This document shows, piece by piece, positions 5,084 through 6,719 of a stretch of DNA of 11,623 nt; the stretch's first letter is position 1; each line of letters begins with the position of its first letter. The position numbers and the translations under genes were made by a program. The notes below the pieces were generated by a model that searched no databases, was not told where the DNA came from, and was given only the letters and a program-made list of their open reading frames with translations. Location: IMG/VR virus record IMGVR_UViG_2681813228_000014; one strand, 5' to 3'. This DNA is from a virus (Duplodnaviria > Heunggongvirae > Uroviricota > Caudoviricetes).

Positions 5084-6181
5084 ATGACAATTTCATATAT
5101 TCCTATTCTGAAAGCGAAACGTTCTGAGTTATCAGCTTTATCGCAGCTATCCATTGAAAAGAAATCAAAAATTTTGCCATTACTCGAAATTGAACCAGTG
5201 CCAATTGACCCTGATTCAGGTATTGCCTTAAAGAGTTATAACGAGACTCTTATAGAGTTCGGAAAGAAAGTCTCAAAATCTTGCTCAGATATGCAAGGTG
5301 TTTATATTGATGGATTATTAATTGAAGAGCATTTTATTTCTCCTGAAGATCATTACCCTATAATAAATGCGGTTAATCAAGTTAGAGATATGGGGATAAG
5401 AGTTATTCCTGTCAGTTCACCAACTCGCCCATCTAACTATAAAAGAGCGATTGATGAATTAATGCAGAATGAAATATGCTTGAGATTAACCACGTTAGAT
5501 CTGGTTAACCCACAATTAATAACGCATTACATTAATCATCTGGGAATTCCTTTATCAAATATTGATATAATTATTGACTTAAGAGATGAGTTAACCGAGG
5601 ATAAAATTAATTCCGGCGAACTATATACTTTGGCAATGGGATTGATAAACAATCTGGCGCACCTCAATGAATACAGAAAAGTGATTCTTTCTGGGGGTTC
5701 ATTTCCTACAGATCTCAGTGATATTTCTGTTGGTCTATATTCTCAACCTCGAATCGAGTGGATTTTATGGCAGAGTTTAATGAATAGAAAAGAACTTGCC
5801 AGAAATGTGATTTATAGTGATTATGGAGTACAGCACCCCGACTTTAATAGGCTTTCGACGCGATTCCCTAGCGTATCTGCCAGCGTCAGATACTCTGGAG
5901 ATAATGACTTTTGGGTATTTCGAGGAAGAGTAGCTAATCGCTTTGGTTATGAACAATATGGTAAACATAGTGAGGATATTCTTGCTCATCGAGAATATTC
6001 AGGGCCTACATTCTGTGCGGGAGATAGAGACATAGAATATTATGCAAACGAGTATCAAGCCTACAAAGCCAATCCCTCTGGTAACTATAAATTTGGTAGC
6101 CCAGAGGTATGGCGTAGGATTGGGCAAAACCATCACATAACTAAGGTTGTTGAGCAACTCGCCACTCTTTACGGGCTTTAA
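5084..6181 (+). CDS. Protein of unknown function (365 aa), first gene of an AT-rich accessory cassette
   Basis: Long intact ORF with AAGG Shine-Dalgarno about 9 nt upstream of the ATG; visibly AT-rich compared with flanking phage genes; no motif I can name. Possibly related to families annotated as beta or sce7725-type, from memory only. Confidence 0.75.
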   Translation: MTISYIPILKAKRSELSALSQLSIEKKSKILPLLEIEPVPIDPDSGIALKSYNETLIEFGKKVSKSCSDMQGVYIDGLLIEEHFISPEDHYPIINAVNQVRDMGIRVIPVSSPTRPSNYKRAIDELMQNEICLRLTTLDLVNPQLITHYINHLGIPLSNIDIIIDLRDELTEDKINSGELYTLAMGLINNLAHLNEYRKVILSGGSFPTDLSDISVGLYSQPRIEWILWQSLMNRKELARNVIYSDYGVQHPDFNRLSTRFPSVSASVRYSGDNDFWVFRGRVANRFGYEQYGKHSEDILAHREYSGPTFCAGDRDIEYYANEYQAYKANPSGNYKFGSPEVWRRIGQNHHITKVVEQLATLYGL

Positions 6182-6719
6182 GTTTAACTCGAACAGCTTC
6201 ACGAAGCTCGCCAACATCCATACTATTGGCGAGTTTTGACCATAAGACGCGTTTAGGTTTATTTTTCAAATTCTGTAGCTCCCCTACATCACTTAATAGG
6301 GAAAGCAATTCATCTTTCCAAAGAAGCATTGTTAAGGAAAGTTTGTCCACTTGTGGATTCAACTTGCTAGTTCGAATTGTTTTTAAATGGATACCTTGCC
6401 GTGCACCTTGCGTAACTTGCTTTATCCCCCACCATGATGGAACTATGCTTAAAGCATCATAAAGATGGCAATCAGAGACAACCAAAGTTACTTTATCCAT
6501 CACTGATGAGTAATGTTGCACCTGCGCTGGTAATCTGAGCAAGTTATCACTCTTGCTCTTCAACTCATAACCATGTATAAGCCCATTGATCACTGCTATA
6601 TCAGCTCTGCTAGCCCCTAGATTCATCGTAAACTCATCAATGATTAGGGTGTCAGGATCTTTATGATGATCTCTCAGAATCTTGGCATGCACAGCCTTTC
6701 TTACATCAATGTCTCTCAT
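6141..6719 (-). CDS. Putative PD-(D/E)xK-type nuclease-like protein (192 aa), convergent partner of the 365-aa gene
   Basis: Contains IIDEF ... ADIAVINGLIHGYELKSK, a D ... D-x13-E-x-K arrangement typical of the restriction-endonuclease-like fold. Its 3' end overlaps the 365-aa gene by 41 bp (6141-6181). Possibly sce7726-type, from memory only. Confidence 0.75.
   Translation of the reverse strand: MRDIDVRKAVHAKILRDHHKDPDTLIIDEFTMNLGASRADIAVINGLIHGYELKSKSDNLLRLPAQVQHYSSVMDKVTLVVSDCHLYDALSIVPSWWGIKQVTQGARQGIHLKTIRTSKLNPQVDKLSLTMLLWKDELLSLLSDVGELQNLKNKPKRVLWSKLANSMDVGELREAVRVKLKARKEWRVAQQP

Follow-up and report, generated by a model that had tools for sequence, protein, structure and literature searches.

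A convergent gene pair forms an exchangeable cassette in a Rac-type prophage

We analyzed a pair of facing genes, of the Beta and cII (sce7726) families, in an 11,623-nucleotide stretch of viral DNA (IMG/VR record IMGVR_UViG_2681813228_000014, Caudoviricetes), hereafter the window; strains of Escherichia coli O121:H19 have a Rac-type lambdoid prophage (ydaT/U/V, kilR, recET) that matches it with 100% identity. The two open reading frames (ORFs) have ATG starts and lie at 5084-6181 on the plus strand (365 aa) and at 6141-6719 on the minus strand (192 aa); they are convergent and share positions 6141-6181, a segment of 41 bp that includes both stop codons. Both are real genes, since each product has a full-length match to a family hidden Markov model (HMM) and hundreds of homologues. 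A preliminary description, made from the sequence, had seen here two intact convergent ORFs with a 41-bp 3′ overlap, set between a methyltransferase gene and a hok locus in a block richer in AT than its surroundings. Its coordinates and neighbors hold, and base counts bear out the composition: the GC content of 5084-6719 is 38.3%, as against 47.8% for positions 1-4583 and 48.5% for positions 7042-11623, and the GC content at third codon positions is 0.30 and 0.36 in the two genes versus 0.41-0.61 in neighboring genes. The features of the locus are as follows.

4371-4583, minus strand: hok
4521-4696: sok RNA (Rfam, 119.8 bits), making hok/sok 4371-4696
4709-6870, no strand assigned: exchangeable AT-rich cassette holding only the two genes and their upstream regions (bounded by homology breaks; GC ~38% versus 48%)
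4709-5083, plus strand: non-coding region upstream of the Beta gene
5084-6181, plus strand: Beta-family gene, 365 aa, predicted TIM barrel, proposed sensor or regulatory enzyme
6141-6181, no strand assigned: dual-coding 3′ overlap, 41 bp (Beta T353-L365 and stop; cII K181-P192 and stop)
6141-6719, minus strand: cII/sce7726-family gene, 192 aa, predicted PD-(D/E)xK fold and C-terminal helical domain, proposed effector
6202-6238, plus strand: terminator-like hairpin and T-run within the cII coding sequence, 21-57 nt beyond the stop codon of Beta, whose transcript may end here
6720-6870, minus strand: region preceding the cII gene; contains a weak sigma-70-like match
7042-7515, minus strand: class I S-adenosylmethionine (SAM) methyltransferase gene (RefSeq annotation of the identical locus)

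The related Rac-like phages PhiR42_1 and vB_EcoS-640R1 match the window up to 4708 and again from ~6871-6905 onward, with ~1.1 kb of other small genes at the position of the cassette. Because homology stops and resumes at its borders, the Beta and cII genes with their upstream regions constitute a discrete, exchangeable segment, or moron, of ~2.16 kb. The prophage moron position proposed earlier is thus an exchangeable slot in Rac-like prophages, and homologues of the pair lie in mobile-element and defence-island contexts. Among 5426 complete E. coli genomes, 93 match over at least 80% of positions 4600-7040, at 97-100% identity. A third gene in the cassette was considered and rejected, the candidate ORFs (4810-4932, 4929-5060, 6765-6896 and 6799-6936) being confined to near-identical E. 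coli copies; upstream of Beta we found only ORFs of 40 and 43 aa, neither of them conserved beyond such copies.

The 192-residue protein belongs to the cII family and has a predicted nuclease fold

The minus-strand product matches the NCBIfam model NF033832 (sce7726_fam) with 191.1 bits (cut-off 70), residues 1-184 aligning to positions 1-183 of the 184-position profile, and the family name sce7726, which the preliminary description had suggested, was therefore correct. It also matches the PADLOC 'cll' model of the gop-beta-cII system (2.4e-28), and its homologues carry precomputed matches to Pfam PF26915 (Phage_P4_cII). As P4 cII itself scores 151 bits against sce7726_fam and so passes the cut-off, sce7726 and P4 cII are, by these profile scores, one family. 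This family comprises 5466 clusters at 50% identity (E <= 1e-3). Identical copies of the pair are labeled 'beta family protein' and 'sce7726 family protein' in RefSeq, and the record of phage Rac-SA53 labels them 'beta' and 'CII phage-like protein'. The window protein owes the name cII to P4 genetics; it has no Pfam CII match and its sequence is unrelated to lambda CII. Some cII homologues are longer, but nine extended proteins gave no Pfam match to an extra domain, and the extensions are probably long overlaps or miscalled starts.

The predicted fold of cII is a PD-(D/E)xK core of the order alpha-beta-beta-beta-alpha-beta, together with a C-terminal helical domain. Its homologues were aligned in sets of 26 sequences (including P4 cII and a Gordonia phage protein) and of 121 sequences. 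Neither alignment varies at R38, D40, E52, K54, S55, D58, R62, Q66, K181 or R183; the smaller one does not vary at E29 either, a residue at least 90% conserved in the larger one, and W186 is invariant or nearly so. The catalytic motif reads E29 ... D40-x11-E52-x-K54. The nuclease-like residues noticed earlier are thus conserved among homologues, D40, E52 and K54 without exception in both alignments, whereas the x13 spacing then given has to be replaced by x11, and the first acid, taken to be D28 of an IIDEF motif, by E29. The same predicted core fold and E...D...ExK arrangement are found in PD-(D/E)xK defence effectors (restriction endonucleases, Can2, Cap4 and NucS-like proteins) and also in SPO1766. 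Unlike such effectors, cII has no fused sensor domain (CARF or SAVED), its partner being a separate TIM-barrel protein encoded on the opposite strand, and its sequence similarity to any solved nuclease is undetectable; PDB sequence searches with single proteins and with profiles returned nothing significant for either Beta or cII.

The best structural match of cII is SPO1766 (PDB 3dnx), a protein of unknown function that we take to be a member of a DUF1052/MmcB-like family. This match, the name 'DNA repair protein MmcB-like' given to a cII homologue by one database source and the label 'regulatory protein' in some records would suit a role outside defence, in DNA repair, recombination or regulation, for example of lysogeny. 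Such a role is very improbable: the pair is non-essential accessory cargo in variable slots outside the conserved phage modules, its distribution is patchy (the 93 E. coli genomes noted above), its P4 homologues give phage resistance, and the name that might suggest a lysogeny regulator is the P4 name just mentioned.

The 365-residue protein belongs to the Beta family and is a predicted TIM barrel

The plus-strand product had at first been described as lacking any nameable motif, but it matches Pfam PF14350 (Beta_protein) over its full length (3.8e-52; 178.3 bits, cut-off 27; residues 5-356 on positions 1-341 of the 342-position profile). Its best match among defence models is PADLOC PD-Lambda-2_C (1.8e-41; residues 4-362 on positions 6-354 of 374). 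The PADLOC P4-type 'beta' model aligns with residues 4-40 only, that is, 37 N-terminal residues (E = 2e-4); a profile built from the window Beta and its relatives recovers P4 beta with 36.5 bits (E = 5.5e-10), and homology between the two proteins is clear, at the level of profiles, through PF14350 and the profile of relatives. The preliminary description had suggested the names Beta and sce7725. The former stands and the latter was rejected, since NCBIfam NF033831 (sce7725_fam) gives the window protein 12.3 bits over the N-terminal 35 residues only, below the curated cut-off of 60; the same model matched none of five other Beta proteins, the Sorangium one included. Both window proteins are ordinary members of their families (sce7726/PF26915 and PF14350), to which no function, structure or mechanism has been assigned.

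A confident model predicts that Beta folds as a TIM barrel. Its invariant or near-invariant residues are Y5, E15, D76, R134, D165, W226, D246, Y270 and H351, and several conserved polar residues lie at the C-terminal ends of the barrel strands, which is the usual catalytic face of TIM barrels. Judged from the model, Beta looks like an enzyme or a ligand-binding barrel rather than a small antitoxin.

A full-length cII gene stands beside a deleted, truncated, frameshifted or IS1-interrupted Beta gene in loci L012, L060, L073 and L121/L122 and in E. coli PEC209; in the last of these, IS1 lies within the Beta gene and cII is intact. These loci bear on a scheme of the restriction-modification (R-M) kind, in which Beta, acting like the transglycosylases TGT and DpdA, would modify the DNA or nucleotides of its own cell and cII would cut unmarked DNA. 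Loci with a disrupted Beta and an intact cII would then restrict themselves. The similarity of Beta to TGT and DpdA is, moreover, non-specific, their scores being no better than those of dozens of unrelated TIM barrels; there are no linked precursor-synthesis genes, and gop-beta-cII acts as triggered cell death, not restriction. We consider an R-M-like function to be improbable.

The convergent overlap is conserved and dual-coding

A cII scan with one genome per species gave 395 relatives, and the best 80 loci, from Proteobacteria, Firmicutes, Actinobacteria, Acidobacteria, Chloroflexi, Myxococcota, Melainabacteria and lineages of the candidate phyla radiation (CPR), were read. With the window, P4 and a Gordonia phage these make 83 loci; L003, the RM8352 duplicate of the window locus, was not counted. 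A convergent Beta gene was found in 77 of the 80 cII-anchored genome loci, and the three without one comprise two at contig ends and one with a degraded Beta (L012). Wherever both genes are present (80/80 loci) Beta is adjacent and convergent, and the 3′ ends overlap in 77 of these 80 loci, by a median of 53 bp (range 11-158 bp). The length of the overlap equals 2 modulo 3 in every one of the 77. Similarly, Beta-anchored viral contigs have a convergent cII in 25 of 27 loci, 23 of which overlap in the same phase. Furthermore, in 92 of 106 loci a distance of exactly 30 nt separates the first bases of the codons for W186 of cII and H351 of Beta, and the loci that depart from this spacing mostly do so by multiples of three. 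The window matches this core-pair architecture, its 41-bp overlap being 2 modulo 3 and its W186-H351 codon spacing 30 nt.

Per-position information content follows the codon periodicity of Beta up to the junction and that of cII beyond it, and all three codon positions are constrained over the ~12 nt where the conserved C-termini of the two proteins meet. The pairwise identities of Beta and cII co-vary (Pearson r = 0.75), with means across the family of 31% for Beta and 44% for cII; in these alignments Beta evolves much faster than cII throughout the family. The fixed phase and the constant 30-nt codon spacing across loci argue that the overlap is ancestral, and the sequences compared here indicate that it is dual-coding and that the pair is inherited as a unit. 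We found no description of a convergent dual-coding Beta-cII architecture in the searchable literature.

Type II R-M systems often have their genes in convergent order, and a convergent arrangement sets relative expression both in these and in antisense-controlled toxin systems. Convergent type II R-M pairs and hok/sok resemble Beta-cII in that linked genes face each other with mutual antisense transcription. In contrast to both, the Beta-cII overlap codes for protein on both strands in a phase conserved across phyla, and the pair includes neither a methyltransferase nor an antisense RNA gene.

The pair also occurs in other phage settings. A second E. coli Beta-cII pair (L084-L086; cII 53% identical) forms a two-gene insert between Rz and Nu1 in lambdoid prophages, with a 59-bp overlap in the same phase as that of the window. 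In Gordonia phage Powerball (L002) the convergent pair lies at 3872-5684, in a block between HicAB and an integrase; its cII, annotated 'exonuclease', is 41% identical to the E. coli protein and its Beta only 24%.

Beta and cII are the shared core of gop-beta-cII and PD-lambda-2

The gop-beta-cII system of P4 protects against lambda and P1 (Rousset 2022, PMC9122126), and it has been described as a cell-death system triggered by phage orf184 (bioRxiv 10.1101/2023.04.06.535777). Within it, Beta is reported to be the antitoxin of Gop (PMC9122126, citing Ghisotti 1990). The window shares with it a homologous Beta (PF14350) and a homologous cII (sce7726_fam; PADLOC cll). The P4 genes are ordered gop (plus), beta (plus; 651-1715) and cII (minus; 1746-2540), so that beta and cII are convergent as in the window; both loci are accessory cargo in a mobile-element hotspot, and the catalytic residues of cII are conserved in both. 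However, P4 beta and cII leave 30 bp between them, in which a terminator is annotated, whereas the window genes overlap, and P4 cII has 264 aa with a C-terminal extension as against 192 aa in the window. Moreover, the window has no gop gene and no room for one: a BLASTP comparison of P4 Gop with all ORFs from 60 aa upward, taken from the window and from 83 loci, matched only P4 itself. The suggestion that the pair corresponds to the P4 system is therefore right as to the homology of Beta and cII and fails as to membership, gop being missing. At the sequence level P4 is a divergent outlier of the Beta-cII family.

In PD-lambda-2, a toxic peptidase (B) is neutralized by a HigB-like protein (A), and Beta is needed for defence but not for neutralization (Vassallo 2022, PMC9519451). 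The C gene of this system is of the Beta family and matches the window Beta over its full length. The genes for the HigB-like A and for the B protein (Xre-HTH and IrrE/M78 peptidase) are absent from the window cassette, and cII stands outside both the published and the PADLOC definitions of PD-lambda-2. Elsewhere the two sets of genes meet: in 17 of the 77 cII-anchored genome loci, PD-lambda-2 genes (PD-Lambda-2_B, 1.8e-150; PD-Lambda-2_A, 1.5e-32) lie directly upstream of Beta and are co-directional with it, a DUF6932 protein (PDC-M63A-like) replacing HigB in some of these PD-lambda-2-like loci. Among peptidase-anchored metagenome loci, 28 have the peptidase gene together with Beta and cII, which in every case overlap in the conserved phase; 22 lack Beta, and Beta also occurs with no detectable cII (e.g. 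L152, L158 and L162). The loci concerned are as follows.

L021, L038, L042, L044, L047, L057, L072-L083: genome loci of the PD-lambda-2-like kind with the fourth gene
L124-L185: metagenome loci of the PD-lambda-2-like kind

In these samples, PD-lambda-2-like loci usually have a fourth gene, convergent and overlapping, of the cII type with its nuclease fold. The bare pair is the commonest form, 60 of the 77 genome loci having no PD-lambda-2B upstream of Beta and none having gop. Since the gop, HigB and Xre-peptidase genes are missing, the window pair belongs to neither gop-beta-cII nor PD-lambda-2 as defined; in terms of gene content it is their shared core, in its commonest form.

The same comparison raises the question of whether the pair is a remnant, able to sense or regulate only within a system of three or four genes and useless without the toxin. 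Among its relatives, Gop and PD-lambda-2B are the only proteins with demonstrated toxicity, and the 17 genome and 28 metagenome loci just described do have PD-lambda-2 genes upstream of Beta. Nevertheless, the bare pair is the majority form and is kept intact with invariant catalytic residues across many phyla, two different lambdoid slots and Gordonia phages hold it as an insert complete in itself, and the 97-100% identity retained over most of 4600-7040 in 93 E. coli genomes would be unexpected for a remnant. We regard this explanation as unlikely.

A toxin-antitoxin (TA) or addiction pair, with cII as nuclease toxin and Beta as antitoxin, would mainly stabilize the prophage or the cassette. 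The report of Beta as Gop antitoxin in P4 (PMC9122126), the description of PD-lambda-2 and gop-beta-cII as TA-like and the position of the cassette beside hok/sok and doc pairs all point in this direction. But the loci in which a full-length cII with intact motifs adjoins a disrupted Beta suggest that cII without Beta does not always kill. Neutralization of the toxin in PD-lambda-2 does not require PD-lambda-2C, and known proteinaceous antitoxins do not resemble Beta, a TIM barrel of 365 aa whose conserved pocket is like that of an enzyme. Addiction is thus unlikely to be the main function of the pair.

Transcription signals suggest antisense coupling

In the RNA fold of positions 6120-6260, the hairpin listed above has a 13-bp stem, CGAAGCUCGCCAA/UUGGCGAGUUUUG (z = -2.3). 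At a threshold of dG <= -10, 53% of 94 loci have a site with a hairpin and T-run after the Beta stop; the corresponding figures are 20% for control windows and 17% for the sequence following the cII stop (Fisher p = 2.5e-8). From these predicted structures, the Beta transcript probably stops at the hairpin inside cII; transcription of cII probably runs on into Beta, as a terminator-like signal is lacking after cII. An intergenic terminator cannot insulate genes that overlap, and each transcript would therefore be antisense to the 3′ end of the other. Mutual antisense regulation of Beta and cII is plausible from this layout, and the more so because distant phyla have kept the convergent overlap. 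A mutation in the cII terminator of P4 reportedly gives a temperature-sensitive phenotype, which was blamed on defective beta expression; such an effect would be direct evidence for interference of this kind. In GenBank M27748 this terminator is annotated between beta and cII.

A candidate sigma-70-like match upstream of cII (ATGGCA-18-TAGAAT, 6786..6757) agrees with the consensus at 9 of 12 positions, the count of such sites being that expected from shuffled sequence. The cassette is flanked by a 16-nt inverted repeat with 15 of 16 matches (4869-4884 / 6779-6794), so that each of the two genes has TCAAATGGCATT ahead of it, reading in the same direction with respect to the gene; one arm of the repeat is overlapped by the sigma-70-like match. 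We rejected this repeat as a shared operator or terminal repeat: it is unmatched in 18 homologous loci, the best words they share being equal to those of shuffle controls, and it is probably due to chance or particular to the window copy.

Genomic context of the cassette and its homologues

A scan of 150 ORFs flanking the homologous loci found integrases, resolvases, primases, lysis genes, some defence genes and ordinary genes. The defence genes include Kiwa (KwaA, KwaB), type I specificity subunits, a type III methyltransferase, Mza and dNTPases, the Kiwa and type I and type III matches coming from single members of the scan. One homologous locus adjoins McrBC and Mrr, and another adjoins a type I R-M system and an AAA_13 protein. 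The context, as read from these gene annotations, is that of mobile-element cargo, in part within defence islands; it is consistent with a role in defence and is not overwhelming.

In the window, a doc-family toxin gene (3476-3970, minus) and a small upstream ORF (3980-4159, minus) are followed by hok/sok, so that doc, hok/sok and Beta-cII are three toxin- or defence-type modules in a row. Insertion sequences are found near both ends of the cassette, with IS3 at 4561-4563 in O121 RM8352 and IS1 at ~6884 in phage Rac-SA53. Farther away, Rfam matches comprise a C4 antisense RNA (1356-1439), its a1/b1 target sites (1502-1554) and isrK (1465-1541), all on the minus strand and adjoined by an ORF6N/Ant-like ORF (887-1303, minus); the C4 RNA and the Ant-like ORF correspond to a C4-ant control module of the P1/P7 type, here carried by a lambdoid prophage of the Rac type. 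The small RNAs AgvB (anti-GcvB; 181-242, plus) and STnc100 (243-435, minus) are also present, as is a tRNA-like match (522-581, minus) in a part of the prophage for which the RM8352 record annotates tRNA-Met.

Discussion

That the two genes belong to the Beta and cII families and share a conserved architecture is nearly certain. We propose that this prophage moron is an anti-phage module complete in its two genes, the Beta and cII core of gop-beta-cII and PD-lambda-2, and we give this reading about an even chance. The assignment of sensor and effector roles and the antisense coupling, all of which we infer, are plausible. According to this model, cII would be a PD-(D/E)xK nuclease effector that cuts DNA, its C-terminal helical domain possibly binding DNA, and Beta would be an infection sensor that licenses or controls the nuclease. 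The trigger may be a phage protein, as in the orf184-activated gop-beta-cII system, and convergent transcription over the shared dual-coding 3′ end would set the ratio of Beta to cII protein. The outcome would be loss of phage DNA or abortive infection, guarding the lysogen from other phages. We favor an activator or sensor role for Beta over that of an antitoxin because PD-lambda-2C is required for defence and not for detoxification, and because full-length cII survives where Beta is disrupted.

Several observations weigh against this proposal. The two-gene form is known here from sequence, and PADLOC has no two-gene rule that calls the locus. The toxic components of its relatives, Gop and the Xre-peptidase PD-lambda-2B, are absent. 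Of 34 informative peptidase-anchored loci with Beta, 6 have no detectable cII despite room for it. In the published PD-lambda-2 clone, no more than 396 bp follow the 3′ end of Beta; if ECOR42 has a cII, the clone truncates its 5′ end, and defence there would therefore not need cII. The fold matches of Beta are generic across TIM barrels, so no substrate can be named. Promoters are at the level of chance, a consensus scan giving 8 sites as against 8.1 expected by shuffle. Finally, neighboring genes are heterogeneous, with clear defence islands at only some of the loci.

A bolder version of the model, which we hold only tentatively and think doubtful, makes Beta-cII an immune module that is ancient and acts by itself, with the head-on, dual-coding overlap as a component of its switch. 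The balance of the two transcripts would keep the nuclease silent, and infection sensed by Beta, whether through a phage protein, a metabolite or a disturbance of transcription, would release it. If this were true, Gop and the HigB/Xre-peptidase genes would be lineage-specific add-on effectors, and the current definitions of gop-beta-cII and PD-lambda-2 would describe peripheral variants of one larger family.

The protein annotations, the P4 homology and the two published systems were already known. In the searchable literature we found nothing on the two-gene form, on a Beta-cII unification of the two systems, on a fourth gene of PD-lambda-2 or on the fold assignments, and nothing on the function of sce7725 or sce7726. 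To date, gop-beta-cII and PD-lambda-2, two E. coli anti-phage systems that are validated by experiment but unsolved in mechanism, have been treated as unrelated three-gene TA-like loci; here they have in common a core of Beta and a predicted nuclease. This core usually stands alone, spans many bacterial phyla as well as phages and is missed by current defence-finding rules. The cassette offers a minimal, natively arranged test object of 2.2 kb for what Beta senses and what the predicted nuclease cuts. As a rare case of ancient convergent gene overlap, it also lets convergent transcription be tested as a regulatory device in immunity. Since prophages of pathogenic E. coli O121:H19, O55:H7 and O111 carry it, the cassette may shape the susceptibility of these strains to phages, Stx phages included.

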